A stretch of DNA of 62,660 bases, counting the filler, from Reclinomonas americana ATCC 50394 (Eukaryota): assembly GCA_048213135.1 (NCBI GenBank). It is 5 parts of 2 records of this genome, joined end to end, with 100 filler letters (N's around TTAATTAATTAA, not from the genome) between each part and the next. Parts side by side here need not be neighbours in the genome. Positions count along the whole stretch, not along the records: positions 29,653 to 39,212 come from PS015066.1; 4 more parts are not named here. One strand, 5' to 3'. Numbering within the stretch: position 1 is the first letter of the stretch; every line of letters begins with the position of its first letter. The position numbers and the translations under genes are program-made. The notes below the pieces were generated by a model, which did not search any database, was not told the origin of the DNA, and saw only the letters and a list, made by a program, of their open reading frames with translations. This document shows, in pieces, positions 4,578-62,660 of this stretch.

Positions 4578-7386
4578 TCATGCTGGGTCGCAGAGCCATA
4601 ACAACACAAGGACCTCGTCGTTCGTCACTGCGCGAGAAGGAGAGTGAGCACTTGTCCACGACGCACGGTGCGCTCGCTGTTCCTTGACTCACCAGTGGCG
4701 CACGGGTCACCAAAGATGTCGGTGTGCGCGCGTACGGTGCACGACTGCTTGCCTTGGCAGCTCTGCTTGAGCGCTGCCGTGCCGTCTACCGAGCAGTCGA
4801 TGGAGGATGCGTACGTCGCAGTCGTCGGACACTCGGCGTAGGTGGCGTGTCGGCGGCCAAACGTGCCCGACACAATCTACGTCAAGAGGTTAGAAACGAA
4901 TGCACTGAGCAGAAAAAACATGGACCGGAGGTGGACCGCTCACCGACACTGCGCAAGACAAAACAAAAAGTTAGTGAAGATCAAAGCGCAGTTCGCAACC
5001 AAGCGAGCACAAACGCACATATGTGGTCATCCTCGCACGTCAGCGTGACCTGCGAACCAAAGCACAGCACTGCAAGAACCAGCTGGTCAGTTCTGGCGAC
5101 GCAGTGAGATTGTAGGTCATTTGGTTGCAACGCACCATTTGCAAATGCCAAGTGATTGGCGGCCAGTCCACCGAGAGCAATCGAGCAGTCGTTGCCAGTC
5201 CACGGATTGTTGCACAAGCAAGCGCCTCGTGGTGTGCACACGCCGTTGTTGGAGCAGCGGTTCGCTGGTGTGCACTCGCCTGCGCACAGCACGGAGGGGG
5301 TTGAGTGACAGGCGAGTGATCTAGCAGGTGCGGGTACGCAACAGTTGGGACCACCGTATCCATGCGTTGTGTCACAAGAGCATGAGCCTGCGCGAGAAGG
5401 TGAAAGTTGAGCAATCACACTTTCTCCGCCGATTATCGGGGAACATGAAGCACACCGTCGACGTTGCATGTTCCTCGTCCGTTGCATGTGGTTGCCGGAT
5501 CGCACAGGCACGTGGCTCCCCCAAAACCAGTGTTGCAATTGCTGTACAAGGCAGCAAAAGTGAGAGAGTGCGACACACAGGTGTATCCGGCCGCATTTAA
5601 AGCACACCATTGCCCAATGTCGTTGCACTGGCCACGCCCGTTGCTGCCACCACACAAACACAACCTTAATCAGTGCTCTACCGTGCCCTGCGATCTTCTC
5701 GTGTTCTTCTTACCAAGTGGTGTTATCGGAACACGAAGTGGCCACAGGGCGTGCCAGTGTTGCAAGATCGCTCCAGGTGGACACGCCCATCGCCTGGTAC
5801 TGCACACTCTGCGTCGACAAGCCTGCATCATTCGCCGACAACGCCAGCACCTCCAGTCTGTGATTCCCGGCCGTCAGTGTGGTTGTAAAGTCGATTTCGT
5901 TGCTGCATAGGCGCGCACAAGAGGGTGAGTGCTATCTGATCGGCGCAGTCACGCGCACAAGCCAGGCAAACCTCCAGTTCTGCTGCCAGTCCACCGCCAT
6001 TCGCGTCCACCGCACAATCCCTGTTGGGGGTCACAGATAAGTCATTGGGATTGATAGGGAACAGAGCTGTGTGTGTGTGTGCCTGTTCACCATCGAGTCG
6101 CACGGCTGCTCCCCACCCCGCGGTGACGCCGAATCGGAACACGTACGTCCACTGTGAAGACACCGAAAAGTCGATGACGGTGATTCGTGCCTGACGAGTC
6201 GGGCTGTTCACTGCGCCGCACAAGTCGGCCGCACGCAGACCAACAGAGGTCGTCAGATTGCTGACTCCGCACTCAGCCGCAGACTGAACGCCAAAAGTCA
6301 GTAAAAGAAGGCACAGCTGCAGGACGTGGAAGATATTCGGTCGCGCCACACACCTCGGTGGCCTTGGCGTAGAGAACCGACCAGTCTGACGACACTGGTG
6401 GCGTTGCTGACATGCCGTACACGACCATGGAAATGCCTGCGAGTCACAGAAACATGAGCGCAAGAAGACGGCGAGGTGTCGCAGTCGGTACACAACTGGC
6501 CCCAGTGGAGCCCGAGGACACCAGTGCCGCTGCGTCAGTCCACTGACCGCCGTTCGTTCTGTACTGCAGACCAACAGCACCGTTGCCTGCGTCGTAAACA
6601 AGTCAGTGCGGCGGTTCTCGTGCGTTTCTATCTGACGCTTCTTCTCGTACTCACAGCAATCGTCAAAAATGTACATTTCCACGCTGCGCCCCCACACAAC
6701 ATCAGTTCCCATTCATCAACGCCGCAGCTGCAGGAGAGCAAAAAAACGCAACGTATGAGTTCCACTGGACAACGTAGTGGCCGGAATGTACTTGGCCGTA
6801 TCCCAGCTACCGCCCCACCAATCGTCACCAGAACTGCACAAGCGAATCGATCAGGCACTGCCAAGCAACAACATCCATCCCACGGTGACGCAACACACGC
6901 GCGACAACAGTGTTGTCAATGGCCACAAGACCGCCGAGCTGAGGACCCGAGTCGTACGCCCACCGAAACTCGTACTGCGCCGCCGACGACACCGAGAACC
7001 GTATGTACAGATGGTGTGCGTACTTCGCATTCTCGCTGACCTGACCGGGGCACACCACACTGCCCACCATCGTAGCCACGCTCGAGGGATTGCTCCTCGT
7101 GCACGTGCCCTGCAGCGCGTTGAAAGCTGTTGCAGTCGCCGTCAGCGACAGTGACGTGAAATCGAGCGACAACGCCGAGGTCCACGTGGCCATCTCGTGC
7201 TGGATAGGTGCTGTGTGGAGATCAACAACAACGCAGTGAGCATAGCATGACGCGGGACCGAGCATTCACAGGGGGAGAAGACGCACGAGTCGCACTGGCC
7301 GGAGCAATCGACAGCACCAGCATCATCGCGATCGTCGCCAGCACGATTGTTCGTCGCTCGCACCGTCGCTCCCATCTGGTGATCAT
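4578..7386 (-). CDS. Secreted protein: signal peptide + two CCXG-family-like beta domains + ~3 EGF-like repeats + C-terminal SUEL-type (galactose/rhamnose-binding) lectin domain
   Basis: Hand-spliced: signal IVLATIAMMLVLSIAPASA; YEFRWAYDSG..GGLVAID..DDWWGGSWD..LSSGTHTVEMYIFDDCCNG; second copy YVFRFGVTAGWGAAVRLDG..LTAGNHRLEVL; CNGRGQC, CNGRGTC and CSNNGVC EGF repeats; GTFGR..C..CQGKQSCTV..FGDPC lectin motif. Confidence 0.75.
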
Positions 7387-18442: not shown

Positions 18443-18542
18443 NNNNNNNNNNNNNNNNNNNNNNNNNNNNNNNNNNNNNNNNNNNNTTAATTAATTAANN
18501 NNNNNNNNNNNNNNNNNNNNNNNNNNNNNNNNNNNNNNNNNN
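18443..18542. other. Artificial contig linker (44N-TTAATTAATTAA-44N)
   Basis: Six-frame-stop spacer; an identical structure occurs four times. Confidence 0.95.
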
Positions 18543-19416: not shown

Positions 19417-20862
19417 TCAGCGCACAGGCGTGGACGCCTGTGCGCTGAGGGGACTGCTACTCGGTCCGGCGACCGTGTTCTGCGCACCGATGCTTGGGGT
19501 CGCCGTCGTCTCTTGCGCACTCGAGGGGAGTGTTGCAGCCGACCTCGGTGCGCTGGACGCTGGCCGAGTAGGCACCGCAGCCGACTTCGGCGCAGTGGGA
19601 GGCGTGGTGGACGTTGACTGAGCAGCGCCACTCGGGGCCGTTTGTGTCCCCGGTGCCGCCGCGGTAGCTGGGCTCTTCGCACCATCGCCAGCTGCAGTCT
19701 TTTGCGCTCGCTGAGTACTGCCACTCGCCGAGGTAGTCGGCTTCTGTGCGCCACTGTCTTGGCTCCTCGTCTTCCCACGTCTGACTAGCCCCGGTTCGTC
19801 TGGCGCAAAGGTAACACGCGCGATCTTCTCCGCGGGCGCCTCGTCGCCGTCCGCCATCATCTCCACGACATCAGCGCTGTCACCGCTCACGTCCGTGGAG
19901 GTATCTTCATTGTCGTCGTCAGTGCACTCCTCGCCCTCGCTGTCACCGGAGCCGATGATGCGGTGGAGGCCCTTCTTTCCCAGGTACTGCATCGCGCGCT
20001 TCGCCGCATCAGGCATGGTGCGAGCGAATACGTCGACGTCGCCGTCGCCCTTGGACATGCAGCGGCATGCGCAGGTCTTGTGAGCATCGGCAGAGATGTT
20101 GACTGCCTCGTCGGGGAGGTATGTCTTCGGCGGATCAGCGCCGTAGCGGCCGGGGTCATTCATGACGTGGATGGTGCAGTCCCAGCCGTCGCCGTCGATC
20201 CCGACACACACCGGGCGTGATCCGCGACCCGTTGGTGCGTAGACGAACAGGAGCACGCGGTCACTGAGTTTCAGCACGCTCATCGGGATGCGCCGCGCAC
20301 AATGTCAGAGCACACACACACACACACACGCGGGGCGGGGCGAGGTCCTCGTGCACTCACCAGCTTGACTCTCTCATCTTCCTCGTCGTCGGAGTCCAGG
20401 TCCTTATACAGCGCGTAACACGCCATCGCCACCTTCACTGGATGGTCGAGCTTGACGAGAATTGCCTTGAACTGTTGATCAGACTTGAGTTTCACCGATC
20501 GCGAGGCTGAGTGTGGGAGATTGATGACTTGTCAACGCAGACATTCCTCTTTGGCCAGTGGCTGAAAGGGCACGGCACGAGAGCATCATCGACAATGCTG
20601 TAGACTTCTGCAACGCCTGCCATTCGAGGTATGCACACACGCCAACGCGAGAGCGATCGACAGCAAATAGACGCACGCGAGCAGATCCCTCCCGCGCTGG
20701 ACGAAGAATTCTGGTCAGTCTTTCACGGGAGAGGACGCGTACCTGTGCGTCAGTCACGTCTCGCACGTAGCGTCCCCGCGCGAGGAGCTTCACGGTAAGT
20801 ATGCTAGAAATAGAGAGACGGTATGCAGTCGCAGACTCACTCGGCGTCCTTTCTGTCTCCAT
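19417..20862 (-). CDS. Hypothetical multi-exon protein with acidic and low-complexity C-terminus
   Basis: 288-codon terminal ORF plus upstream coding-like exons ending in GTGAGT/GTACGC donors; no family recognised. Confidence 0.5.
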
Positions 20863-20863
20863 A

Positions 20864-21064
20864 CCACCATGTTACCAGAGGTCCCTCCTCACTGTTCACG
20901 CACTGTGTGCCGTCGGCGGAGGTGACGGTGGGCGTGTGTGTGTGACTGACTGAGATTTCCTGATTGTGTGCACGTCGCCGGCGTCCACTCTCTCCGTGCC
21001 ACCATGTTGCCAGAGGTCTCCCCTCACTGTCCATGCGCTGAGTACCGTCGGCGGAGGTGACGGT
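20864..21064. repeat. Imperfect ~66-bp direct repeat, 2 copies (~20864-20929, ~20999-21064)
   Basis: ccaccatgttRccagaggtc...cctcactgt...ccgtcggcggaggtgacggt present twice. Confidence 0.85.
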
Positions 21065-22136: not shown

Positions 22137-23656
22137 ATGCGTACGCTCACGACTGGGAACGCACCGAGACCACCAGTCTCCTGCAGAACGACGAGGAGGG
22201 CTGACCTGGAAAGCCTCGTGCCATCTCATCGCAAGCCGTCGGAAGCAGAGGACTCGATCACACGGACAGAGCGGCTGGTGCAGCTGATGTTCGACACGAT
22301 ACCGCCTCAAGAGCCGCCGCCGCTACCTCTATGGGACTTCCCTGGTCACCGCGAGATTGCCACTTGTCTGGTAGACATGGCAGCGAGCTTGCAGGCCGGT
22401 CGCTACGTCGGGCAGCACGGCATCAACTCCGTGACGATCGTCGGTGCCAAGGGCATGGGTAAGACGACCACCATCGCCCGCTTCGTCGAGCTATGCCCCG
22501 CACTCTTCGAGGATATCATTCCGGTCTACGTCAGCTTCGAGAGTGTCAAAGGCGTTGCCAAGACGCCGAACCTTATTCCGCGGCTCCTGGCCTGGGGACT
22601 GGCAGAGAACGGCATCGCCGTGGAGTGCGAGCCTGATACCGAGCTGTCGCTATTTGACATCCGGCGCACGCTCTACTCTGTGAATAAGTTTGCATTCCTT
22701 GCCGTGGATGAACTTGACCAGGTGTGTGGTAACCATCACCGAAAATGACATATCGCACGAATGTAGACCCACACAGCCCCGTGCCGCAGGTGTACACACT
22801 ACCAGCGACAGCCACCAATGCGCGCGATATACTCGACGACCTCGCTTCCGTTGCCGGAGACAGCGACATTGAGTACAGTGGTCGCTTGGCCATCGCAGTG
22901 TGTGGGTCCTCGTCAGCGTTGCCGGCGCTCATCTCGAAGAACGCTGTGCATCTTCCGTCGCTCGTGGCGGAATACCCACTACTTGCGAATTGCCCCAATC
23001 TCAACGGCTCCAAGTTCCCTTCCAAGCGTGTCGGGAGCGTCACGATGGTCGATGACGATGCGGTTAGACTGATGATCGGCAAGGACTGTGATCTGGGTAT
23101 TGCGAGAGCCATACTCTTTATGACCGGCGGATCGCCACGCCTTGTCGGGCAGGCAATCAGCCGCAAGGCCGGATCGCTGGACGGGGTTCTGGAGGCAATG
23201 ACGGGCAACCGCACCATGGTGGATCCACTGTTAAAGACCGTGTACGACACCATCGTGAAGATGTTCGTGAAGAATAACTTGGCCGTCATCAAGAGCCTCG
23301 TCGACGACTCCGGCATCAATTGGGATGCCGTGGAGAAGGGCGACTGGACGCAAGCGCTGAGCGCCGTCAATGTCGAAGACGTGGTGAGGACCTTGTCGGC
23401 GGATCTCAGTGTGTCTGATCCCCTCTTCAAGGAGCGGGTGAGTGTCGCCATCTTGCGTTTGCACGATGGCACGTGGGTCACCATCGACGGCGCCGCGCTC
23501 GGACGGCCATCCACAGTGTATCCAGGCTCTATGTACGCCGCTGTCTTGGCCCACCTGGCGCCGAAGCCAAAAATAATAGAGATACTGAAGAAGAGTGCGT
23601 TGGCTACAATCAAGAAATACGTACAGAATCCAGATAAGGCGTTGAGCGCGCTCTGA
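22137..23656 (+). CDS. P-loop NTPase (AAA/STAND-like); start uncertain
   Basis: Walker A IVGAKGMGKTT and Walker B FLAVDELDQ; an intron at ~22722-22789 joins DQ|VYTLP in frame; downstream VCGSSSALP and MTGGSPRLV motifs. Confidence 0.8.
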
Positions 23657-29552: not shown

Positions 29553-29652
29553 NNNNNNNNNNNNNNNNNNNNNNNNNNNNNNNNNNNNNNNNNNNNTTAA
29601 TTAATTAANNNNNNNNNNNNNNNNNNNNNNNNNNNNNNNNNNNNNNNNNNNN
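29553..29652. other. Artificial contig linker
   Basis: 44N-TTAATTAATTAA-44N. Confidence 0.95.
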
Positions 29653-34336: not shown

Positions 34337-36095
34337 TTACTCTTCGTCGACCTGGATGGCACCGCCCTCTGACACGTAGATGCCGTCGAGGAACTTGCGG
34401 ATATCCTTGTTCTTGACGAGGCAGCTCTGGTGCACCAATGCAGCAGACCGGGAAACCAGCTCCAGATCGTTGCCCTCAATGGTGATCTCGTTGCTGCGCG
34501 CGGGGGGGAGAGAGAGGGGCGATGAGCCATCCGCCAGACGAGCGCAAAACACACAGCCACGAGTGTGTGTGCACGCAACTTCTTGATCTCGGTAATGCTG
34601 ACGCCGTCGAGCATTCCCACGCGGCGGACAATGCGCTCACCCAAGAAGTTGCGGACCTCGAGAGTGGTCTCAGCATCCTCGGCCTTGGCGACGTTGATGG
34701 GGAAGTGAGCGTACACAGTCTTCATCTTGTATCGGTAGCCCTTGGTGACGCCGACAATCATGTTGCTGATGTGCGAGCAGATGGTGCGGAGGACGGCCAC
34801 CTGCTTGCGCTTGCCGTGCCAGATGTCCACCTTGATGTGGCGCTTGTCAACCATGCGCATGTCCACAGGTGCGTGCGAAAAGCTGCGCTTCAGTGTGCCG
34901 CGCGGGCCAGTGACCACAACGTCACGGCCAGTGAGCTTCACATCGACTGCATGCNNNNNNNNNNNNNNNNNNNNNNNNNNNNNNNNNNNNNNNNNNNNNN
35001 NNNNNNNNNNNNNNNNNNNNNNNNNNNNNNNNNNNNNNNNNNNNNNNNNNNNNNNNNNNNNNNNNNNNNNNNNNNNNNNNNNNNNNNNNNNNNNNNNNNN
35101 NNNNNNNNNNNNNNNNNNNNNNNNNNNNNNNNNNNNNNNNNNNNNNNNNNNNNNNNNNNNNNNNNNNNNNNNNNNNNNNNNNNNNNNNNNNNNNNNNNNN
35201 NNNNNNNNNNNNNNNNNNNNNNNNNNNNNNNNNNNNNNNNNNNNNNNNNNNNNNNNNNNNNNNNNNNNNNNNNNNNNNNNNNNNNNNNNNNNNNNNNNNN
35301 NNNNNNNNNNNNNNNNNNNNNNNNNNNNNNNNNNNNNNNNNNNNNNNNNNNNNNNNNNNNNNNNNNNNNNNNNNNNNNNNNNNNNNNNNNNNNNNNNNNN
35401 NNNNNNNNNNNNNNNNNNNNNNNNNNNNNNNNNNNNNNNNNNNNNNNNNNNNNNNNNNNNNNNNNNNNNNNNNNNNNNNNNNNNNNNNNNNNNNNNNNNN
35501 NNNNNNNNNNNNNNNNNNNNNNNNNNNNNNNNNNNNNNNNNNNNNNNNNNNNNNNNNNNNNNNNNNNNNNNNNNNNNNNNNNNNNNNNNNNNNNNNNNNN
35601 NNNNNNNNNNNNNNNNNNNNNNNNNNNNNNNNNNNNNNNNNNNNNNNNNNNNNNNNNNNNNNNNNNNNNNNNNNNNNNNNNNNNNNNNNNNNNNAACAGA
35701 AGCAAAAGGGAGGATAATCAGCATCAATGACAAAGAGTGCGAGGGGGAGAGTTGCCTGCTCTGCCTGTCGTGCTGTTGGTAATGATGAAGGAGAAGAAGA
35801 AGAGGAGAGCGTGCGTCTCTGTTCTCTCTCCCACCATGCCATGGTCTATTACAGGCGCACAGACCTCACTTTTCGGCTGCCCCTCTCACTGCTGGCATGA
35901 GGCCACAAGCACTCACTCCAACGCACACATGCAGGCACACTGCCTGACGCACAGGGCGCGCGTCGAGACATGCCGCTTCTCATCGCTCACTTCCCTCTCT
36001 CTGCGTCACGAGTCTCTCTCTCTCTCTCTTTTTTTCCACTTTCACTCACCGCCCTTGGGGATAGTCACCGAGTTGGTGGAGTAGATGTCCTTCAT
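34337..36095 (-). CDS. RPL9: 60S ribosomal protein L9 (uL6)
   Basis: Exon 1 [15 protein letters not shown] (36095-36050); then [32 protein letters not shown] and [16 protein letters not shown]. Confidence 0.97.
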
Positions 36096-36382: not shown

Positions 36383-38563
36383 ATGGCAGCGGGTTCTTCA
36401 GGGCGCAACTATGCGCAAGAGATGGACTTTATCGAGCAAGTCTCGCCCACTCGTTTCGTCGCGCACAAGTTGTCAGATACGTGTCTGTCCCTCTCTCACA
36501 TCTCTCTCTCTCTCTCTGCCTGAATGCAGAGTTCCGCATTCGACGCGGCTTCGTGCCGCACATGAAAGTTGCGCACACGCACGCACGCACGCATGCAAGG
36601 AAAAACCCCCTCCCTCTTGTTTGTGTCAGAGAGTGGCCATTTCCAGCTCACGCACTTTTGTCGTAGGTGGAGGGCACGTTTTACATTAACGAGCACCTCA
36701 AGCATCTCATGCTCGACGAGCTGTCACAGTACAGTGAGCACGGTGGAGTCGGAGGATTCCTGCCCTCGGTCAAGCAGATTGCAAATGTCGCCGCGTTGCC
36801 TGGCATTGTCGGAGTTTCGCACTGCGATAGAGACAGAGAGATTCTCAGTCCATGGTAAGTTGGCATGCCTGACATTCTCTCTCCGTCTTCATGTAGAAAT
36901 CGATTGGGTTGCCGGATGTGCATTCCGGGTACGGATTTGCGATTGGCAATGTGGCGGCGTTTGATACGGCGGATCCGCACGCAGTTGTCTCGCCCGGCGG
37001 TGTCGGCTTCGACATCAACTGTGGTGTGCGACTGCTGCGCACGAATCTGAGCGAGGAGGACATTGCGCCGATCAAGGAGGATCTCACGCAGAGCCTGTTT
37101 GATCACATTCCGGTCGGTGTCGGCTCGATGGGTGTGATTCCGACGACCATGAGCGATCTCGAGGAAGTGCTGGTGCGCGCGTCAACTGGCTCTTGCTCTC
37201 TGGCGTGTGGCTGAATGTGGAATGCAGGAACTGGGCATGGACTGGTCCATTCGTGAGGGCTACAGTTGGGCCGAGGACAAGGAGCACGCGGAGGAGTACG
37301 GCCGCATGCTGAACGCCGATCCGACCAAGGTCAGCGCGCGTGCCAAGAAGCGTGGACTGCCACAGGTACGCACCGACTGTCGAGTCTCTCTGTGGTATAC
37401 AGAGTGAGTGACTCGCGATTGGCGACCACAGCTGGGCACGCTGGGCGCCGGCAATCACTACGCCGAGATCCAGATTGTGGACGAGATCTACGACAAGATG
37501 GCGGCGGCGACCATGGGGCTGGACCACATTGGTCAGGTGGTGGTCATGATTCACAGTGGATCGCGTGGACTCGGTCACCAGGTGGCCTCCGACGCGCTGG
37601 CTGTGATGGAGCGTGCCATGGCGCGTGATCGCATCGAAGTGAATGACAAGCAGGTTTGTTTGGAGAAGAGATTGAGAGAGAGAGAGAGAGAGAGAGAAAG
37701 AGACTCATGATGTATGCTGGCAGCTTGCGTGCGCTCGCATCGGCAGCAAGGAGGGTCAGGACTACTTGAATGGAATGGCGGCGGCCGCCAACTTTGCGTG
37801 GGTCAACCGATCCTCGATGACGTTCCTCGCCAGACAAGTTGCGTTTGCACCCCAGGGTATATTGTTATGAGAGTGCATGCGCTCACCTTGTCGCCACCGC
37901 TTCGTGCAGGCATTTGCCAAGGCGTTTGACACCACTCCCGACGATCTCGACATGCACGTCATCTACGACGTGTCGCACAACATTGCAAAGATCGAGGAGC
38001 ATGTTGCGTGCGCCGCATGGCATTCGTTGGTTGTCGTCGCGCACTTATTCTTTGCTTCGCAGATGGTAGATGGCAAGATGAAGCAGCTGCTTGTGCACCG
38101 CAAGGGCTCGACACGCGCCTTCCCACCGCACCACCCACTCATCCCGGTCGACTACCAGTTCACGGGTCAGCCTGTGCTGGTACGATTGTCGCCTCTGCGC
38201 TCTGCGCTCTTTGTTGCTCATTGCTTACCCCCGAGTGTCGCGCAGGTTGGTGGCTCCATGGGCACATGCTCGTATGTGCTGACTGGCACCGACAAGGGCA
38301 TGGAGGAGACTTTCGGCTCCACGTGCCACGGCGCCGGTCGCGCACAGAGCCGTAACAAGTCGCGCAGAAAGCTGGAGTATCAGGATGTGCTGGATCAGCT
38401 GGCAGAGAAGGGCATCTCCATTCGCGTGGCGTCGCCGAAATTGGTGGTGGAGGAGGCTCCAGAGTCGTACAAGGATGTGACAGAGGTGGTCAACACATGC
38501 CACGACGCCGGCATCTCGGCCAAGTGTGTCAAGCTGCGACCAGTGGCCGTGATCAAGGGCTAA
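36383..38563 (+). CDS. RTCB: tRNA-splicing ligase RtcB, eukaryotic type; 10 exons: 36383-36452, 36530-36567, 36667-36813, 36897-37172, 37228-37365, 37432-37653, 37724-37837, 37910-38002, 38063-38179, 38246-38563
   Basis: [70 protein letters not shown] and LRPVAVIKG are all present in frame. Confidence 0.98.
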
Positions 38564-38715: not shown

Positions 38716-40122
38716 TCACTGCCGATGACGACCGTACTCGCGAATCAAGTCCTCGAGCGACACACCACCCTGCAGCTCCGCCGGCAGTGCATCGTACATG
38801 ACTCGTGAAGGCACGAGTGAGCCGCGATTGGAGGCGTCCACCACACGCAGACCGAGAGACTCGCCGGCCTCCAACTCGCTCAGGTCCTCCCACGAGAACA
38901 ACAGCGTGTCGGTGGCGCGCTCACTCAACACACCAAAATCAACGATTCGCACACGATTCGCCGAGTCCATGTGCACATCCACCGTGTCTGCAAACGACAA
39001 GCGCGAAGAGGTGAGCGTGGGAGTGCACCGGGCAGTGACAAACGGACGCAACAGTCGGCCAGCGGAAACACGCCACGAACGACAGTCTCAAAAAACTCCT
39101 CAATCGCCTGCTGCGTCTGCGCCTGCGTGTCACTCTCGCCGAGGAACGGGTAGCAGGTAGATGTGTCGCGCTGCGAGATGCCTGGCGCGCCACAATGAGA
39201 GGCAGGGAGGGGNNNNNNNNNNNNNNNNNNNNNNNNNNNNNNNNNNNNNNNNNNNNTTAATTAATTAANNNNNNNNNNNNNNNNNNNNNNNNNNNNNNNN
39301 NNNNNNNNNNNNTGGGGGAAGAGGGGCGGTCGCCACTCACCAACAATTCTGCGATCCCGCACAAAGCACCGAAACTCGCCCGCCGCATTCACATCGCCGC
39401 GAAACTTTTGCAAGCACAGATGCACCTGCTCCCGTCGCGCCTCCGTACACTCAGCCTCCGGCTCACAGAATGCATACCTACAAAAAACAGTGAGGGAAAA
39501 CGCAGCACTTGCCTCACAAAAAGCAGCAATCGCAACGGTGCCGCCAGCTCATCCGCCACTGTCGTCGACGCCTTCAACGCCATGTACACCTCTGCCACCG
39601 TGAAGCACTGCAGCACGTTGCCGGGGAACATCCATCGCACATCCTGCACTCACCTCTCGTGTGAGCACCACACAGCTCAATTATAAGACATCGCTGGTGA
39701 GCCTCACCTCCGGTGCCGACCAGTCCAACTTGGGAAACACCGACGGGCCCACCTCACGAATCGCCTGCTCAATCGCCTGCTCCACCTCCGGGAAGCTAAT
39801 CACTGCATCGGCCTCGTCCTCATGATCACCAGCAGCCTGCTCACACACACACACGCACTAAGCACACACTCTATTCACAGGAGGCCGACTCACGTACATC
39901 ATCAACATCGAGAGTCAAGTGTCGCGGAATGCGAAGGCCTGTGTCTTCCTCCTCCTCATCATCTCCAGCTGCAGCTGCTGTCGACAACAGGTATTGTGTG
40001 ACAAAGGCCGGTGACAGAGGAATGATGCGCACGTCGTCGCGAGTCCACACGTGTCGGCGTGCATCAAAGAGCGGGAACCATGCGGGAAACGCACATGCGT
40101 CGAGCTCCTCGCGCGTGGTCAT
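38716..40122 (-). CDS. CDC123: Cell division cycle protein 123 (ATP-grasp eIF2 assembly factor); spans a contig linker
   Basis: C.FPAWFPLF, IIPLSPAF..YL, VFPKLDWSAP.D..W, LKAS, EFRCFV, GISQRD, VDFG and TDTLLFSWEDL motifs. Confidence 0.92.
39213..39312. other. Artificial contig linker (inside a CDC123 intron)
   Basis: 44N-TTAATTAATTAA-44N. Confidence 0.95.
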
Positions 40123-40184: not shown

Positions 40185-43100
40185 ATGGAGTTTCGTTTGT
40201 CGAGCGAGTGTGCATATGTGTGTGCATGTGCACGACAGAGAGAGTGTGCATATGTGTGTTCGTCTGACATGGTTGTTCATGTCGCACTCTCTCTCACACA
40301 CACACACACACGCAGGGACCTGGACGAGTTGCCTGCAGAGCGACCGGCCAAGGTGGCCTCGTTCTCTCTTGCCGCCTTGTCTTCATCAGCAGCATCGTCG
40401 CATGCGCATGCGAGTTGCGTTGCTTGCTGCATTGTGAAAGTGACACTTTGTGTGCGTATCTGAATGAGTGTGTGCAAAACAACAACAGGGCGAGGGCATG
40501 TGCGTGGCAACAGCTGGGGATTGGATCGGTGAGATGACTGTGTGTGAGAGAGTGAGACAAGTGATTGTGCATTTCCCACTCAATTCGCTTGTCGCGCAGT
40601 GACATTGGCTTGATCTTGTCGCGACAGCGCTCTGTTGCCTCGGCCAGTTGCGTCATTGTCTTCTTCTTCTCCTTCGCGCGTGGATTCGGGCTGAACTGTG
40701 GAGAGCGACGCACAGGTGCCATTAGTCTCGGGCTTGGTGTGCGTGGAGGCGACGAGTACATTGGCGATGAGGAAATGGATCGAGACGACGATGGTGGCGA
40801 TGAGGATGAGGACGATGATTATGTGCAGGGTGGTGAGAGGAAGAGTGCATTTGTGTGTGTGTGTGGTCTTTGTTTCGCTGCTGTTCATGCCGGTGTGTGT
40901 GCAGACGGGAGAACATTTCGAGTGCCGATGGTGCGTGGCTGCTTTGTGGTGCTTCTTGTGCGTTCGCTCGCTTATCGTTTCGTGTAGCGTGGGCACGGCA
41001 CGCCGAGTCCCGGGCCAGGAATGGAGTACACGTCGGGTGCGTGCGTGTGTGTGCTTTTCTCAGTCTGTTGTCAAGCACTCACCATCCACCCCTGCCGCAG
41101 ACGACATCTACTCGGAATTCTGTCGCATTCTCGAGTCACTGGACGATCCTGTGGAGACGCTGGCTTCGTATGCACTCACATGTGTGCGCTTGTTGCGTCG
41201 AGTTGTTTCTCTATCTCTTTCTCTCTTGCAGAGTGATGCGCGACGACACACTCCTCACCATCTGCTATGGCAGTGCGGAGGATTTGGAGGAGAAGGCCAA
41301 GACGGACGCAGGGCGACGCTCGGCTTGTCTGGCCGAGGCACGTGTGCTGCGCAACGAGGCCAACACGTGGAGACTGCTCGAGGCTATGATGGTGGAGCTG
41401 TTGCACCGCACCGGACAGAGCGAACTGCACAGAGTAGGCGCAGAGGCGTTCGAGTTGCGTTGCGCTGTTCTCTCTTTTTGGTTCGACAGTGTGAGCGAGC
41501 CTCATTGCCCACGTGCATTTATGCAGGGAGAAGATGCTTCTCTTGCCGACGTGGCGCCGCAGTCATGACAAGGCCAAGGACGTGTTCTTTGTCAAGAGTG
41601 CAGACTACCGCCGCCTGAAGCAGATTATCGACTGGTTGGAGCATTGTGCCCCGCAGTCTGATAGCCCTGGTAACTGCACGCACCTCGCGCCATCTCTTGT
41701 GGTTGTTGACTCAAAACTTTCTCATGTACTCAGACAAGCCCGGTGCGGCCGATTCCGTGGAATCGTGGCCACATACGCTGCAGCGAACGAGGAGTCAGGA
41801 ACCGCGAAGTGGACAAGTTGTGTGCCGACGCTGTCTCTCCTGCCTCGCATGCGTGCATCGACTCATCACTTGCTGCACTGCAGGGTCGACCAAAGACAGC
41901 ACTCGATCCCGACGCCATTTCACGACAGAACCTCCGACTCGACGAGCACGACAAGGTGTGGTTTCTCAGTGCCCTTTTCGCCAATCGCGTAGCGGCTTAC
42001 CGTGGTTGGCGGCACAGCTCAACGAGGACCGCCTGCTGGACAGCGTGTTCAACAGGCTTCGCTGCGGCATGCTAGAGCAGGCTGTGGAAGATTGCATGGA
42101 CGCAGGGCAACCGTACCGTGCGGCCACGCTCTCCGGTGGCGAGCTGTTCGAGGACACGAAATTGTTGGGAGGTGAGGGACGTGTGTATGAGTGAGTGCAG
42201 CTTGGGTCGAGCGCCTGACGCGCTGTACGGCACCAGATGCGGCCAAGGCAGTGACCACTAATCCAGTCAATGCTGGCAACCCGTTGCGTGCGCTGTGGAA
42301 GCGCGCGTGTTACGAGTTGTCTCGCGATGTTCGAGCGCCGGAGCGAGAGCGTGCCGTGTATGGTGCGCTGGCCGGTAATCTCGAGGCCACGCTGCTTTCC
42401 TGCAAGACGTGGGAGGACTATCTGTGGGCACACCTTAAGTGCGCGCTGGAGGACGCGGTGGACAGAGTTGCGTAGTGTGTGCGATGACTGTCGTTCAATG
42501 ACCACTCACTCACTTCCGCGCACAGGAGGTGTCGGTACACGCTGCGAGCGACATGAATTGGCGGGCTGCCTATGGTGCGCCTGTCGTGTAGCAGTGTCCT
42601 CTACTTGCCATGCCGCGTATGCTCACCATTTATTTCGTGCACTCGCGCATTACAGCGGCCCCGTTTGCCAACCTGCCGGCATCGGATATTGGACGCGCAG
42701 TCGTGCAGCGACTGAANNNNNNNNNNNNNNNNNNNNNNNNNNNNNNNNNNNNNNNNNNNNNNNNNNNNNNNNNNNNNNNNNNNNNNNNNNNNNNNNNNNN
42801 NNNNNNNNNNNNNNNNNNNNNNNNNNNNNNNNNNNNNNNNNNNNNNNNNNNNNNNNNNNNNNNNNNNNNNNNNNNNNNNNNNNNNNNNNNNNNNNNNNNN
42901 NNNNNNNNNNNNNNNNNNNNNNNNNNNNNNNNNNNNNNNNNNNNNNNNNNNNNNNNNNNNNNNNNNNNNNNNNNNNNNNNNNNNNNNNNNNNNNNNNNNN
43001 NNNNNNNNNNNNNNNNNNNNNNNNNNNNNNNNNNNNNNNNNNNNNNNNNNNNNNNNNNNNNNNNNNNNNNNNNNNNNNNNNNNNNNNNNNNNNNNNNNNN

Positions 43101-45550: not shown

Positions 45551-46880
45551 TTATCCAGTGGCGGGCGCCGTGAAGGCTGCAGCGGCCACGGCACGCTTCT
45601 TCATGGTGGCGTGCACGGGGTCACGCGGCGGGCTGCTCTCGGTCGTCGACTTGATGGCGTCGGGGTGATCCTTTGGCAGCGTGTCCTTTTCGCGCACGTC
45701 GTGCACGCCACCACCGCTCAGCTGCCGAATGGCGATCCGTGCAATCAGGTAGAACCAGTACACGTGCAGCACCTGCAAGATGGTCATGCCGACGGTGAAG
45801 CGGCCCAGCCAGACCATGCCGACAATGTTGTAGTGGCCGTAGACACTGCGAAGCGTGTGAGGCTAATGTGTGTGCCGCGCAACGAGGGACGCGTGATCGC
45901 ACGCAACATGGCAGCGCGAATCGGCACGAGTGGGAAGAACGCGAGGCGGGCAAAGAAGAACGAGATGGCGAAGATGATAAAGGTGATGTCGACGAGCTTC
46001 TCCAGCCTCAGATAGCGGAACGACTTGGCCGAATACAGGAAAATATCAGAGACGTCGTGCAACAGCAGCAGCAGCAGTCCGTGGCGGTGGCAACTGTGTG
46101 GGGAGGGGGGAGGGGAGAGAGAGAGAGAGATCAGCAGCGCTGCGCAGACGCAATAACAAGAAAACACGTGCACGCACCGCGCCCACGCCGAGAACAGGAT
46201 CAGCAGGATGGTGGTGACATGATGCACCACGTACACCCAGAAATCGTCGAGTCGCGTCTCGAAAAAGTGCGACACCAGCGCCTCCACGTAGAACGACAGC
46301 TCCAGCAGATAGTAGAAGAGGAACGCCGGCCTATGCACAACAGCGCAGCGTGAGCAGGCACCACAGCGTGCGCGTGACGAGTGATCATCAATGCACCTGA
46401 ACGGTTGCAGCGGCCAGTTCGCCCAGATGTTGGTCAGTGGGAACACTGTCCACTCCTCCGTCATAAACACCCAGAGCGCCATGGAGAACGCCAGGGTGTA
46501 GTACGTGGCGTACCACGAGTTCTCCAAGAACTTGCGTTCCAATTTGCGGAAGGTGGCCTCGTAGGCGACGGGGTTGGTCGTCTTGCCGTGCCACCGCCGA
46601 AAGAAGCGCAGCGCGCAGAAGCGATAGAGCTTCTTCACCACGAAGAAGCACAGCGCAAGGATGCAGATGGGCACGAGGCCGCGTGCTTCGCAACAGACGC
46701 GCTCCAAGTCAGTCACGAACAGCGCGTTGTTGGCGTCCACCACTGCATTGTGAGCAAAGGTGGAGATGTCGTCGCCAGAGTACTCGTGGGTGAACCTGAG
46801 AGCAGCACAGAGACAAGAGAGAGCGCGGGTGTGAGAAGTCTGATCCTTGGCGAAGAATATATGTGATTCGTCAACCACAT
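45551..46880 (-). CDS. Ceramide synthase (Lag1/CerS, TLC domain), copy 1
   Basis: KFLENSW, YYLLELSFY, RLDDFWVYVVHHVTT, LHDVSDIFLY..K, RLAFFP and LQVLHVYWF motifs. Confidence 0.92.
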
Positions 46881-48096: not shown

Positions 48097-48470
48097 TCAC
48101 GCCGTGATTGCAGTCGCAGCGACGTTGCGCTTCTTCACAGCAGTCGTCTGCGCCAGGGCCAGGGCCTGCTGCAGGGCGGCCTCAGCTGCCGCCTTGATGG
48201 CATCGGGGTGATCCTTCGGCAACGTGTCCTTCTCGCGTACATCGTGCACGCCGCCACCACTCAACTGGCGGATGGCGATTCGTGCAATCAGGTAGAACCA
48301 GTACACGTGCAGCACTTGCAGGATGGTCATGCCGACACAGAACCGACCCTGCCAAACCACACCCACAATGTTGTAGCGGCCAAAGACACTGCGCGTCAGG
48401 GGTGGTTAGGGATAGAGGAACGGCAGGGCGACACACACACACACACACGCCCTCTTTCTCTCCCTCCCGC

Positions 48471-48501
<31 letters not shown>

Positions 48502-49705
48502 AAAGCGTGTCGGCAGACCCGTCGATGTGGTCGCAAATGCAGCGGCGGCCAACACGCTCGCACAGCTCGCGATCAGGCACCATTGGTAGCCGTCTCGCTC
48601 TCTGCCTCGCTTTCTCTCACGCCCCCCATCTCCCTCCCTCCCCCTCCCTCTCTCCCATCTCCCGTCACGCAACATGGCAGTGCGAATGGGCACGAGCGGG
48701 AAGAACGCGAGGCGGGCGACAAAGAACGAAATGGCAAAGACGATAAACGTGACGTCGACCAGCTTCTCCAGCCTCAGGTAGCGGAACGACTTGGCCGAGT
48801 ACAAGAAGATATCCGACACATCGTGTAACAGCAGCAGCAGCAGTCCAATTCGATGGTACCTGTGCGTGTGCCGCAGCGCAAACAAATGAGCATATCTCCT
48901 GCAGCAACAACAGCGTCGCAGGGCGAGCACGCACCGCGCCCACGCCGAGAACAAAATCAGCATGATGGTGGTCACGTGATGCACGACATACACCCAGAAA
49001 TCGTCGAGTCGTGTCTCGAAAAAGTGCGACACCAGCGCCTCCACATAGAACGCCAGCTCCAGCAGATAGTACAAGAGGAACGCCGGCCTATGCAAACGAG
49101 CAAAACATGAGTGCGCAGGCACCACAGCGCACGTCGCGACGAACTGCCACAGTGCACCTGAACGGTTGCAGAGGCCAGTTCGCCCAGATATTTGAGATGG
49201 GGAAGAGGGTCCACTCCTCGGTCATAAACACCCACATGGCCATGGCAAACGCCAACGTGTAATACGTGGCATACCACGAGTTCTCCATAAACTTGCGCTC
49301 CAATTTGCGAAACGATGCATCGTACGTGGCACGATCCTTCTTCTCGCCATGCCATCGCCGGAAGAAGCGCAGCGCGCAGAAGCGGAAGGCGTTCTTCACG
49401 ACGAAGAAGCCGAGGGCGAGAATGCAGACGGGAACGAGCGCGCGAGCCTCGTAACCGACGCGCTGCGGGTCGCTAATGTAGTGCTCGTTGGCCGCGCGAG
49501 CCACTGCATCGTGCGTGTAGGTGCTCACATCGTCGCCTGCGTAGTCCACTGATAGCCTGTGTGACGCACACACACAACGCATATTTTTTATGAGGATGCG
49601 CACACGCACACGAGACACGCATTTCGTCGCCTCTCTGTGCACACACACACACACACACACTCACGGTTCGAGATACCACGAGATACTCGACCACGGGGAA
49701 GACAT
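48097..49705 (-). CDS. Ceramide synthase (Lag1/CerS, TLC domain), copy 2
   Basis: Same motifs and intron positions as copy 1; start MSSPWSSISW. Confidence 0.92.
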
Positions 49706-50672: not shown

Positions 50673-51757
50673 TTACTTTACCACCGCAGTCACTCGTCCC
50701 ATGTGCGCGCGACGAATGGAGGTGCGCGAGCGCTTGCGCGCCGTGGCCATCACCGCCGCCGCCGTGTCATCCAAATCTGCCGTGTCGACATTGTCGGAGC
50801 CGAGGGCGCCGCCCACCGCTGAGCAGGCGGACGAGGAGAGACGCTTGCGGCGCCAGCGCGCCAACTCAGCACTGGACTTTTGCGCGGTGCGGAACAGGCG
50901 CTGCTCGATGCGCGTCAACTTGGCCAGCGCCGCCGACTCGGCCTCCGTGTGACCCGTAGTCATGCGCGACATGGAGCAGCCGCCAGCGCGCAACCCCGAT
51001 GTGTGGAACGTGTCGAGAATGCGACGGAAGCGCTCGATGAACAGCGGCAACAGCATTCGCCTCATCTCCCCATCGCCAGTGCTGTGCATGCGCGATCAGC
51101 ACGTGCGCTCATGGTGTGGGGCGACTCGCTGCAGTAACAGACGCAACAGATTCGCCACGCGGGCGCCCATCTCGAAAAAGTGCGGGTTGGACTGGTTGAG
51201 ATTGTAGAAGGCCGGGTCGGCCTCCAACCCGCGCAAGTACCGCGGTCGAAGATACGCCGGCACATCCACGTCGACATAGCCACGGCGACACACTGCGCTG
51301 ACCAGCCAGAACGGCATGTCAACTCGCGCGCCCTCTCGCAACTGTGAGTGAGATCAGTTGGCCCCAAATCGTCATGACATTGCGCGCCAAAACACACAAA
51401 ACAATCATGCGAGACGGTGAGCGACACGCAACGTCCTTGTCTTCCTCCTCCTCCTCGTCTTCGTCTTCGTCCTCCTCCTCATCATCATCGTCCATGTTGT
51501 CTCCCGCCTCTGCTCTTCTCCTCATCCTCTCCTCCTTCCTCTGCAGTTGCTTCTCATCCTCGCGGTATGAGGTGTCCAGGAAGCCCAACTCAAACGACGC
51601 AGTGCGCCACACCACACTCAGTTTCTGTGTGTGAGAGAGTGAGAGAGGCAAGAGTGAGTGAGGGTGAGAGGCAACAGAGAGTGACAGTGAGAGTGCACGG
51701 CATGCAGACCTCCTCCTCAGCCAACAGCTGATCCAAGTCATAGTACTGTCCCTCCAT
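50673..51757 (-). CDS. GINS3: GINS complex subunit Psf3 with acidic insert
   Basis: MEGQYYDLDQLLAEEE, LGFLD, G.RVDMPFWL, LEADP..YNL....PHFFEMG, FIERFRRI and KLTRIEQRLF motifs. Confidence 0.88.
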
Positions 51758-51843: not shown

Positions 51844-51943
51844 NNNNNNNNNNNNNNNNNNNNNNNNNNNNNNNNNNNNNNNNNNNNTTAATTAATTAAN
51901 NNNNNNNNNNNNNNNNNNNNNNNNNNNNNNNNNNNNNNNNNNN
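51844..51943. other. Artificial contig linker
   Basis: 44N-TTAATTAATTAA-44N. Confidence 0.95.
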
Positions 51944-52143: not shown

Positions 52144-55251
<3,108 letters not shown>

Positions 55252-55494: not shown

Positions 55495-55935
55495 CGGCAG
55501 TTTCCAGATCGAGAAACGGTTTTCATGTATGTCTTCGTCTCCTTCTGGTGTTCTTTGTCTTGCCATCTAAGTATCTCGTCTTTTGCCTCTGCGGCAGCGT
55601 GCCGCCATTCTCTCTCTCATTGCGACAGTTTCCAGATTGTGAACCCGTTTTTGCTGTGACTCCCCGTTGTTTGTGGTTTCCTCTTCGCCTACTCTTCCTT
55701 GGCTTGCATTCTATCGATCTCGTCTCTGCCACTGCGGCAGCGTGCCGCCATTCTCTCTCGTTGTGACAGGTTCCAGATTGTGAACCCCGTTTTGCTGTGG
55801 GAAGAAACGTAGCACGCAGACTCCCCGTTGCTTGTGGTATCCTCTCCTTCTGTTGTTCTTTGGCTTGCCCTCTGTCCTTCCCGTCTTTTCCACTGCGACA
55901 GCATGCCACCATTCTGTTTCATTGCGACAGTTTCC
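55495..55935. repeat. Degenerate tandem repeat, ~145-160-bp unit, ~3 copies, upstream of the PDE gene
   Basis: ctgcggcagcgtgccgccattctctctc..tg.gacag.ttccagattgtgaaccc recurs at ~55589 and ~55732, and partially at ~55893. Confidence 0.85.
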
Positions 55936-56816
55936 TTATCGCGAAATCGCGATAGTTTAGCGGGGCACGTTCCTGTTTTTTGTGCCTTCCTCTCCTTCTG
56001 CTCATCATTATTGTCTTGCCTTCTATCGATCTCCTTGTTAACCTCTCTCCTTCATGACTTCGTTCTCGACGTACATGACACTGAAGTTCAGTCTACTGTA
56101 AAGTGATCTCGCGGAAACGGCGAGCACGGTGAGTGGGATTGCGGGTTGATTGTGTGCAGAGTGTGGTGTTTGTATGTGTAAACGACACGCGTGTGCATGT
56201 GTGCACATCGATGGGGGGCGTGTTGTGTGAGGTTCTATTCCGCGCCCCCCCACATGGTGTTGAGTGAGAGTGGTTGATAGTGTGGTTGGAGCTTGTATCG
56301 CTCTCCATACTATGCACGTGATGGGTGCAGCGGTACGCTGTGAGTGAGGTTGCAGCGGTGTAGGTTGGGCGGTGTAGATGGTGTTTTCAATGCTCTCCAC
56401 TTGTTGAGAGGTCGCACAGTATGTACAAGTAGGTGTTTTCCTCGCTCTGCATACTGTACACGAGATGAATGTAGTACGCGTTTAGTGACAGTGCACTTGC
56501 TTTCCGTGCAGAGCAGTACGAGCTGAGTGAGGTTGCGCTCGTTTGGTTGGAGGCTGCGCTCCTGCTGCTCTCGCTCCCCGTATCCACTCGATGTCTGTTG
56601 TTGTACGTGTGTAGCAAGTGCCCTATATGCTGTACACATGCACGCACGTTCTCCGCACACAGGCGAAGGATGCTGTGCCCGTGAAGTCTACACACACCAC
56701 GTGTGTAGTACGTGTTGTGCCAGTTTTACATCTGCACGTACGTGTGAAGGATGCACGTAGTTCGTGTTGAGTGAGTTGGCAGCGCTGTCACCGCCCACAC
56801 TCATTCCGTTCCAGAG

Positions 56817-57407
56817 ATGTCTGTCGCTGCTCGTCTGCGCCTCTTCTCCCGCGACGCCTCCTTTGCTCGGCGCATGGGCGATCTCCTCCCAGGATCGGCG
56901 TTGAGCGTGGAGGCCATGAAGGAAGTGTTTCGCTCGGGTGCCTATGGTGCGCACGAATCGATCGCGAGTCAGGGGACTGCATCCAAATTGAGTGGAGACA
57001 GCTGTGAGTCGACCGTCGCTGGCGACAGCGCCGACACGACGACAGTCGACAACCAGTCGCATCGGAGCAGGACGCCAGGCGAGAGAACCAGTGGCGATGG
57101 CTTGGAGAAGAATGGAGAGGAGTGAGCTGCTTGTCAACATCCTCGACCCAGTGACCGTAAAACTCGATCGCCTGATGCTTGCAAGAACAGTTAGTAGATC
57201 ACGTTTCGCGTGCGGAACTACACAATCGGTGTCCCGAACGTGAGAATGTCAGGCTCTCTAACGAGAGCTTCTGCACTTCTCTTCCCCACTCGCGGCGCGC
57301 GCTCTTCTCACCACACCCGCATGCATTCGCCTCATCAGGACATTTTCACTGATGTGGCACAACTGAACGCGGCATTGGGGGAAGGCACAGAGACAAAGAG
57401 AAAGTAG
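56817..57407 (+). CDS. Possible small hypothetical gene
   Basis: Coding-like ORF from ATG 56817; exon structure unresolved. Confidence 0.25.
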
Positions 57408-57450
57408 AAAAAACAAGGGTGAAAAAACACGACAATCCTCGATGAACAGG

Positions 57451-60400: not shown

Positions 60401-62660
60401 TGCCCATCAGGAGCAACATATCCGTTTTCTCCAAGGCGGCATCTTGATCCTCAAAACAAAAGTCGTGGCAGAAAGACTTCAGCTCGGCAGTGCTGCATTA
60501 TACCGAAGAACAACGGATCAGTGTCCGGTAGAATGAATGACACACTACAGATCTCTACAGACACACAACATATTACCTCGTGGCCATCAGCGAGACAGCC
60601 AATGTGGGGAATACCGTCAGGTAAAATACTCCCTTCTCAGCTCCTTTCAGCAGTTCGGCCTTTGACTTCCCGGGATACTGCTGAGAATAATGATGTGATT
60701 TTGCGACGTGGGTCCCAAGCACACCAAGCTTCTGCCCTTTGCGGAAAAAGGCCTCGGTTGTGTCCTGCACAATGGCGACTCGGTTATCGATAGCATGGCA
60801 ACGAGCAGCAACACGTGCACATGCCATTCGGTACGCACTTTTTCAAACTCGCCGCATCTACTCTGTATGAGTTCTTGAGTTAGCACCCGTGCGCCAATAC
60901 GATCCTGCGCGCAGCAAGGACAACTGTTAAGTCGCCGACAGCCAGTGAGGCCGGCAGACTTGCACACATCACCCGCAAAGCAAACAGCAACTTCTTGAGT
61001 CATATCTTTTTCCACAGACTGCACGAATATCACCTGCGCTGTGCCCTCCACGACTTGGTCAAGGAGTGCCCCTGCGAGAGGATCGCATATGGCGTGAGAT
61101 AACAATGTCGTGGCGAATATTTACCAGTCAGTGTTTCGTACCATTCTCCTCCAGCGCTCTCTTCACAGCGTCAGCAGCACCCAACGACTTGGCAGTGAGC
61201 GCTATGACAATCTTACGATTGGAGCTGTTGAGAGCAGTGCGCCGTTGGTACGCGCGCAGAATGTCAGGGTCCTCAGTGCCTAGGAAACATTGTCGACGTC
61301 AGCCAGATTCATCTGCTCTTCGGACGCCAGCAACGTTAACAGCAAAAAAAAAACAACAAACCGGCAGTGTCGACCAACACAATCGGGCGCTGAAGCAGAA
61401 CACTCGGCACGAACAGCACCACGCGGCTCAGCATCACCGACTGTATCGATTGAGGGTACGATCAATGCGAGAATTACAAGTGCTGTCTATTCACACATCA
61501 TCCAAGGCACAACGTACCCGCGCTCGCAGTTCAGGGTCGTCGTCAAAATTAGCCACAGTGGAAGAGAGCAGCTCACGAATCCACACGCGATCGGCGACAA
61601 TATCACCACTGCCACGGTAGACAAGAGTGCGATTGGATAACTGAGAAGCGCAAAGACAGACGTCAGAGTGAGTAACAGCAGCGATCCGATAATGTGATCA
61701 GCACCACAGACACACCTGAGAGACGACGGGTAAAAGCTTTTCGTTGAGATGCACCATGTCGGCGGAGAGCAGTTCCTTGAGTTTCTCATTGCGTACTCCC
61801 GGGCGCTCGAATAGTTCGTCTTCCGACACCAATGAATCGACGCAATCAGGGCGCAAGAGCTGCAGAAGTAATCAGTAGTCCACAAGCTTGTACGCACCAA
61901 ACGAAAGTAGAGTCTAGAACACACCGCCGCAAAGCGCTCGAGAGCACTCTCAACCACATCATCGTTATCGCTGCATGAGTCTTGCTCCAGCTCCTTTTTC
62001 AGCTCGGAAATGGGAAAGCACTGCACCAGCAGCTCGTACGCCTGGCTGAACATGATCCACGTGTTGACCGAGGTTGTGGCTCTCGCAGCACTGCTTTCCG
62101 TAAGAATCGCAATTCACACGCTAGATGCACGTCGAGAAAACGTACCGCGTGCTCGGGCATATGTAGCTGTACGGTTCCGCCCCGGCACCGATACCAGGCA
62201 TCCGGCCCGTCAGCGTGCACTGCAGCATTTCGCTAACATTCTTCTGCTCCTTGGCAAGAAAAGGACCCGTGATCACTTGCTCGGCAGCACTGTTAGCTGC
62301 CTTGTCACCTTTGCCACTCTGTATAAAGTCAGAAAACAACGAGGCCGACGACATGTTCTCTTCGGCACACGAATATGCACGCAACTATCGCGTCATTCAA
62401 AGTGAGCAACTGGACATGCAGGGGACATTCAGCAGCCAGTGGTCGACCATTCGATACAACTGAGTCAGTGCCAAAGGTCGGAGTAGTGCTGTGACACTCG
62501 CGGTACTCGAGCGCATTGATTTCCTGCGTGCAGCACGGTATGACCAAGATAATCGATTGGTCAAACACAAGCAACTGGTAACGCACTGTCATGCACACAA
62601 GCGAGTTGATGAACGTGGTTTTTCCAACGCCAGTGTTGCCAAGCAAAATAACTTGCAGAA
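57451..62660 (-). CDS. Very large multi-exon protein with divergent P-loop GTPase-like N-terminal region (5' end lies outside the window)
   Basis: G1 VILLGNTGVGKTTFINSL and G2-like STTPTFG, followed by ~5 kb of successive minus-strand coding-like exons. It could be more than one gene. Confidence 0.55.

Follow-up and report, generated by a model that had tools for sequence, protein, structure and literature searches.

A shifted (+1) register of pairing between U1 small nuclear RNA (snRNA) and the donor was reportedly described by Roca and Krainer in 2009 at atypical human 5' splice sites. In a 62,660-nucleotide stretch of DNA from Reclinomonas americana ATCC 50394 (the window, filler letters included), which carries the gene RTCB, a way of reading splice sites that is seldom met in humans looks commonplace. 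The shifted register at rare human 5' splice sites is covered in the available parts of several papers (PMC4856993, PMC11162779, PMC6280755, PMC9311317); one of these excerpts puts the human sites using non-canonical registers at about 1.5%, all kinds together, and says that, once U5 and U6 have taken over from U1, the exact cut is usually ascribed to its constant spacing from +5G (PMC11162779). As in the human sites described there, many predicted donors of the window read as the consensus plus an extra base after +1/+2, with the +1G in the place of the -1G and the cut before GU. However, the human sites are a small subset served by the standard U1, whereas here such donors are found in 20/123, 34/135 or 34/111 predicted introns (16-31%, according to the model), are tied to exons that do not end in G, have a fixed +5C and show almost no predicted binding to standard U1. 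The register itself is known; what is new is its frequency, its coupling to the exon end and a probable re-tuned U1.

Other described systems share some of these traits. U1 arms that co-evolved with donors are described for Entamoeba (ACAAAC) and Mastigamoeba balamuthi (ACGUAC) in the portion of the preprint available (bioRxiv 10.1101/2022.06.08.495308). The donors of the window resemble the +4C donors of those organisms (GUGCGC in Mastigamoeba), which are matched there by a G in the U1 arm, but those systems use the normal register and one main donor type, whereas two classes one base apart are found here. A variant U1 is also described in a diplonemid (PMC12621601, excerpt). According to the sections available, animals and plants have two major donor classes, AG//GU (U5) and NN//GURAG (U6) (PMC11732430), a weak exon end is usually offset by a strong in-register GURAG (PMC11732430, PMC10599564) and exon-intron coupling at donors is negative (PMC10599564). 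The window likewise has a strong intron motif where the exon end is weak, and H/GTRAG donors are present too (a single slash marks the exon-intron junction, H an exon end other than G); however, those classes share one register, and the compensating class of the window is offset by one base. For Andalucia, the sampled text of the genome report describes few introns, of the GT-AG type, among the genes examined, and contains nothing on donor classes (PMC7050145). Our literature search found no major shifted donor class at such frequency, as judged on titles and abstract openings and with subscription journals thinly covered.

Introns are dense in the eukaryotic DNA of the window, short and of the GT-AG type (medians about 70 nt); they were called with a self-training gene model that was written for it and allows only GT-AG introns; all junctions were placed from DNA and homology, by sequence alone. 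An unsupervised two-component mixture fitted to intron positions +3 to +8 of 135 introns, and therefore blind to the exon, separated GTT(G/T)CGT (weight 0.34) from GT(G/A)(C/A/T)G, and G precedes the first component in 0/34 cases and the second in 45/64 (p=9e-13). In a flat-donor version that scores 'GT' alone, with 123 introns called, GTTNCG follows A11 C3 G0 T6 and GTNNG follows A3 C7 G28 T16 (28/54 after G; p=1.9e-5). The confident set comprises 111/136 introns, after removal of 25 low-margin calls and replacement of one mis-merged RTCB intron by two homology-fixed ones. It holds 34 introns with the shifted donor (class B), 50 introns after G and 27 after non-G with other donors. Class B is preceded by A18, T11, C5 and G0, against 11.6 G expected from codon position (p=1e-6). 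An earlier sequence-only reading of this DNA had found no shifted donor after a G, and none appears in the confident introns (0/34) or under the flat-donor model (0/20), the exclusion being stable at every confidence cut.

Other parts of that reading need to be narrowed. It had proposed that the shift frees the coding sequence from the -1G constraint, which is consistent with the 61/111 donors that follow a non-G exon end, but the -1 base of class B is not free: among non-G bases, C is scarcer than expected (5 vs 15.5) and A commoner (18 vs 8.6; p=5e-4). It had taken the rule to be one-directional, and indeed 27/61 non-G exon ends use donors other than class B (GTGAG, GTAAG and now and then GTGCG), although the T/GTGAGT that it cited near 6631 sits at 6654 on the minus strand. 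Its association of +5G with a preceding G, complete in RTCB, is not general outside that gene: +5G is absent after 12/50 G-ending exons, such as those of the ceramide-synthase (CerS) donors G/GTGCAT and G/GTGCAC.

A count that ignores the intron calls gives 90 HGTTKCGY words, against 41.8±7.0 in shuffles, and GGTTKCGY is not over-represented (8, against 10.3±3.2). In predicted multi-exon genes the ratio of sense to antisense occurrences is 48:9 for HGTTKCGY, 32:10 for GGTRCGY and 59:55 for HGTRCGY, with 11:10, 7:3, 10:11 and 11:3 for four control words. Thus, GTRCG behaves like a signal where the exon ends in G, and GTTKCG where it does not; after non-G, 5/351 GTRCG sites are predicted donors vs 35/107 GTTKCG sites. 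Moreover, class B is the more fixed in the mixture (+5C 0.78, +6G 0.91 and +7T 0.76, vs +4C 0.41, +5G 0.71 and +6T 0.51 in the G class), as expected for a dedicated pairing partner. The model has a visible error rate, since it merged RTCB introns 1 and 2 and placed a false exon inside a CerS intron. Judged from these predicted introns, the two-class donor pattern is real, far above chance and confirmed in the window.

RTCB, as modelled here, is a compact test gene for this pattern, with both kinds of donor in the same transcript, junctions held in place by conserved residues, and old positions at which introns elsewhere have ordinary donors. The gene runs from an ATG at 36383 to a TAA at 38563 on the plus strand, its ten joined exons have no internal stop, and its product is 82.5% identical over its full length to Seculamonas ecuadoriensis RtcB (P0029). 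Residue spacing across each junction was scored in an alignment of 63 full-length RtcB proteins (480-580 aa) among the 120 homologues listed, and at no junction does it differ in more than one of the proteins scored, so that RtcB conservation does constrain the nine junctions as had been claimed. Within 12 nt of the junctions, the only other length-neutral GT/GC-AG pairs are two with GC donors, which belong to introns 8 and 9. The donors are exactly those that the sequence-only reading had listed, with +5G in all four introns after an exonic G and +5C/+6G in all five after A, C or T. RTCB alone gives four G/GTNNG against five H/GTTKCG donors (Fisher p=0.008); together with RPL9 and the CerS pair, counting paralogue pairs once, there are six introns after G outside class B and seven class-B introns after non-G (p=6e-4). 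Phase 0 is found in 8/9 RTCB introns, above the window-wide 49/111.

A pattern scan of metagenomes located an intron at RTCB position 8 in two contigs from another eukaryote (L001 and L002). In L001, introns are found at positions 3 and 8, with the donors A/GTGAGT and T/GTGGGT after non-G, and the next exon starts as predicted. Since these introns have ordinary donors there, positions 3 and 8 are older than the motif and their GT-AG junctions right. The L001 gene (reverse strand, 282-1838) contains five or more introns, 64-72 nt long, and each has a GTRAG or GTGGG donor, in three cases after non-G. No class-B relatives were seen among the metagenome matches, which were two contigs apparently from a single organism and had ordinary donors; this says little, as the scan used a single narrow pattern with a 44-74 nt intron and fixed first codons.

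Table 1. Predicted features of the window that bear on the two donor classes; a slash marks the exon-intron junction, and spacing gives the homologues that keep the residue spacing across the junction.
Feature	Position	Strand	Phase	Donor	Remarks
RTCB gene	36383..38563	+			10 exons, 1533 nt, 510 aa; spliced frame open
RTCB intron 1	36453..36529	+	1	shifted, C/GTTTCGT	homology-fixed, spacing 59/59
RTCB intron 2	36568..36666	+	0	shifted, A/GTTGCGC	homology-fixed, spacing 61/61
RTCB intron 3	36814..36896	+	0	shifted, A/GTTTCGC	spacing 63/63; L001 equivalent A/GTGAGT
RTCB intron 4	37173..37227	+	0	ordinary, G/GTGCGC	spacing 63/63
RTCB intron 5	37366..37431	+	0	ordinary, G/GTACGC	spacing 63/63
RTCB intron 6	37654..37723	+	0	ordinary, G/GTTTGT	spacing 63/63
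RTCB intron 7	37838..37909	+	0	shifted, A/GTTGCGT	spacing 62/63
RTCB intron 8	38003..38062	+	0	shifted, T/GTTGCGT	after invariant His; spacing 63/63; L001/L002 equivalent T/GTGGGT
RTCB intron 9	38180..38245	+	0	ordinary, G/GTACGA	spacing 62/63
RPL9 intron	34494..34579	-	2	shifted, A/GTTGCGT	junction K-N-N-E matches Seculamonas P0121
CerS copy 1 intron	45846..45907	-		shifted, T/GTTGCGT	paralogue alignment
CerS copy 2 equivalent intron	48389..48673	-		shifted, T/GTTGCGT	285 nt; paralogue
CerS copy 1 intron	46094..46177	-		ordinary, G/GTGCGT	copy 2 48860-48934, same donor; spacing in 64/66 homologues
CerS copy 1 intron	46331..46396	-		G/GTGCAT	no +5G; copy 2 49088-49157, G/GTGCAC
GINS-family intron	51342..51432	-		shifted, C/GTTGCGT	ab initio only; also called by flat donor model
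NUP107 intron	42467..42525	+		shifted, A/GTTGCGT	ab initio only; Nup84_Nup100 match in upstream exon
Candidate ordinary donor after non-G exon	6649..6654	-		T/GTGAGT	from sequence; model picks in-frame site 18 nt on

These shared positions also bear on whether the class-B junctions are misplaced (the true cut being G/TT, or both ends slid) or are recent introner insertions, an explanation that we reject as having hardly any chance of being right. TT donors can be cut in two registers in human reporters, according to the part of PMC6280755 available, and the junctions here are predicted ones. However, a G/TT cut with the same acceptor would bring a premature stop at each of the five shifted RTCB introns, and a slide of both ends would put E at RTCB residue 86, where 0/63 homologues have E and 21 have K, and would give K in RPL9 where Seculamonas has N; at RTCB 24 and 367 the slide test is weak (Q17 vs R7 and M26 vs V18). 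Introner elements have internal sequence in common, duplications at their junctions and positions confined to a lineage. Here, positions 3 and 8, two of the five class-B positions in RTCB, are common to another eukaryote, the two blastn matches obtained are both simple repeats and include no class-B pair, no common interior sequence was found and junction repeats are only 0-2 nt. Class B thus lies at least partly at old intron positions, with frame conservation placing the predicted cleavage before the G.

Minor (U12-type) introns are rare and have a TCCTTRAC-type branch site and an RTATCC-type donor. The fixed, exon-independent 5' motif of class B, which does without -1G, is a feature they share, but the idea that class B represents diverged U12-like introns with their own snRNAs is largely refuted, and its chances are negligible. 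The TCCTTRA branch motif is found in 0/34 class-B introns; CT[CG]AC is present in 20/34, against 23/50 introns after G; median lengths are 71.5 and 69.5 nt (p=0.36); phase 0 is the commonest (15/10/9), five class-B introns occur in the single gene RTCB, and two of those positions have GTGAG or GTGGG donors in L001. All 34 class-B introns are GT-AG, eight being fixed by homology, CTNAY lies within the last 45 nt in 27/34 vs 35/50 G-exon introns, and the acceptors of both groups are alike. Given these common motifs and lengths, together with the lack of a U12 branch, of interior likeness and of junction duplications, a minor-spliceosome class and an introner family are both unlikely. As far as predicted introns can tell, the donors form two classes that are offset by one base and follow the last exonic base, with common branch-point and acceptor signals.

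The sequence-only reading had suggested that the intron +1G may take the -1G pairing position on U1, and the geometry agrees with it: the class-B profile diverges least from the G-exon profile at a shift of +1 (1.67, vs 3.86 unshifted, 4.45 at -1 and 5.90 at +2), and its base composition at -1 resembles that at -2 of G-exon donors (A23 T12 C11 G4), G being scarce in each. The same mechanism working unchanged on an ordinary U1, with pairing shifted as at rare human sites and aided by U1-C or LUC7-type proteins that demand C9:G, is nevertheless quite unlikely. This register does exist in humans, and with the standard arm it is the best one for 18/34 class-B sites; however, 16/34 have no stable duplex, and the mean predicted energy is only -0.7 kcal/mol shifted, -0.4 bulged and 0 canonical (all 34 sites), vs -6.3 for G-exon donors. 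Deleting +3U in silico improves class-B binding to -1.6 kcal/mol, and the standard arm would select A at +5, not C. As that arm is weak and the +3U-deleted form binds better, a plain shift on ordinary U1 does not explain the favoured extra T, and something re-tuned is needed. The pattern is therefore not explained by ordinary U1.

We lean towards a reading in which one recognition word, approximately G-K-T-K-C-G-Y, is used in two positions, and class B is read one base downstream by a re-tuned U1 arm. In exons ending in G, the exonic G would be the first letter and the intron would start at the second (G/GTGCGT); in other exons the intron +1G would be the first letter, followed by T (H/GTTGCGT). 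Class B would be spliced by the major spliceosome with the pairs +1G on C9, -1A on U10, +6G on C4 and +7U on A3, and the re-tuned arm would have a G at position 5 that reads C and a purine at 8 that reads +2U, probably alongside an ordinary U1 that serves the G/GT and H/GTRAG donors. At the U6 step, where the cut would fall six and not five bases from the conserved G, one U may be looped out, or there may be no U6 pairing in the shifted register. In a scan of 64 hypothetical U1 arms, with positions 5, 6 and 8 varied, the top six combine G5 with a purine (A or G) at 8 and are predicted to bind all 34 sites in the shifted register at -7.9 to -10.5 kcal/mol. With these arms 34/34 sites bind better than their +3U-deleted forms, vs 1-3/34 with the three C8 reference arms (standard, G5 and G5C6). 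A more specific proposal is that the first intron G has ceased to be read by position 8 of the U1 arm and that the arm instead forms a perfect match to GUUGCGU in a register displaced by one base, giving a second genome-wide donor code for non-G exons via the major spliceosome, with the distance from the cut to the conserved G routinely lengthened; this is tentative, and we rate it somewhat short of an even chance.

Several points weigh against a re-tuned U1. The arm scan was fitted to the same sites, so that a perfect-match arm wins partly by construction, and nearest-neighbour energies leave out pseudouridine and proteins; its result is therefore a prediction and not evidence of a U1 gene. 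The window contains no U1, U5 or U6 gene (an Rfam scan of it gave 0 matches), and the arm is a predicted one. Apart from those of RTCB, RPL9 and CerS, the introns come mostly from ab initio prediction. The A>T>C order at non-G exon ends is usual in other eukaryotes too and thus not diagnostic in class B. In addition, class B has an excess of A at -2 (13 vs 6.7, p=0.009) and not of C, which fits U5 loop 1 or unshifted exon pairing better than a pure shift and points to some unshifted exon contact, perhaps with U5. Finally, in the preprint sections available, several lineages with +4 pyrimidine donors have a standard U1, and the standard arm is retained in Thecamonas, Micromonas and yeasts (bioRxiv 10.1101/2022.06.08.495308).

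A rival explanation is a looped-out register or a reading at the level of U6 or U5, in which +1G pairs normally, one U is left out and CGU pairs with U6 (or U1), a strong intron motif offsetting poor exon pairing with U5 loop 1. The enrichment of A at -1 and -2 of class B agrees with it, and the excerpts available report that U5/U6 exon-intron compensation defines two donor classes elsewhere (PMC11732430) and that STAT3 has a non-canonical U6 register (PMC11162779). We consider it unlikely, as a U1 bulge would favour -1G, which is seen in 0/34 sites (the -2A enrichment being a partial sign for the bulge), the bulged register scores worse than the shifted one with each of the two arms tested (p=0.005 and 4e-4), and the fixed +5C and the avoidance of GTGCGT after non-G would be left unexplained. 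Recognition of GUUGCGU directly by a protein or a non-U1 small RNA, which would recruit the spliceosome where exon pairing is weak, could account for a highly fixed motif with negligible standard-U1 binding, and U1-independent cases are mentioned in the text available of PMC4856993; however, it would not predict a motif equal to the ordinary donor offset by exactly one base, and we regard it as very unlikely.

A conserved G at +6 in a large share of introns provides many natural tests of which step reads the register, and the same introns bear on how snRNAs and donors co-evolve. Moreover, a gene finder trained on a single donor class would annotate genomes of this kind wrongly.

The trend that had been noted in RPL9, NUP107, CerS and GINS genes stands as to their shifted donors, all after non-G, but not as to CerS G/GTGCAT and G/GTGCAC, which follow G and have no +5G. 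Pfam, tried on 63/116 predicted exons, backs the gene names EF-hand, L6/RPL9, Nup84/107, TLC/CerS and Sld5/GINS, some matches being below curated cut-offs; the Sld5 match of the GINS-family gene is in a later exon and under the Pfam cut-off. Homologues of NUP107, sought as a check on further junctions, were not found at E<=1e-8. The best match of RPL9 is from Seculamonas ecuadoriensis (69%, the next 63%), a jakobid and, for RtcB as for RPL9, the best named relative. Its donor was suspected of misplacement from a two-residue shortfall at the junction, but the suspicion was dropped, as Seculamonas has the same shortfall. This two-residue loop deletion at the splice junction of RPL9 (34337-34954, minus strand), present in Seculamonas and four others of 119 scored homologues, is a possible lineage marker.

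The tandem ceramide-synthase (TLC) paralogues, at 45551-46794 and 48097-49535 on the minus strand, have three introns at common positions. Their class-B junction rests on the paralogue, since outside homologues vary in length and do not fix the spacing (only 4 keep that of the query, and 11 are one shorter). The third intron grew from 62 to 285 nt in copy 2 via GA/GT repeats, with the donor kept.

Among other features of the window, exons of a D123/CDC123-family gene (38716-40122, minus strand) face RTCB tail to tail at a distance of about 150 nt, and NUP107 head to head. Two intron-poor long frames, at 19417-20283 (minus) and 22377-23656 (plus), are possibly mobile or acquired genes; there is a weak AAA_22 match in the second and none in the first. 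The region 57350-62660 (minus) looks like a long, lower-GC, many-exon gene, poorly modelled and with no Pfam match in the three exons tried, and it holds A/GTAAGT and A/GTTGCG donors. The word TTAATTAATTAA stands between two 44-base N runs four times (18487-18498, 29597-29608, 39257-39268 and 51888-51899) and looks like an assembly linker rather than biology. In non-coding DNA at 52700-53320, 55590-55960 and 20860-21060, inspection by eye showed tandem or duplicated blocks, degenerate and about 100-150 nt long.
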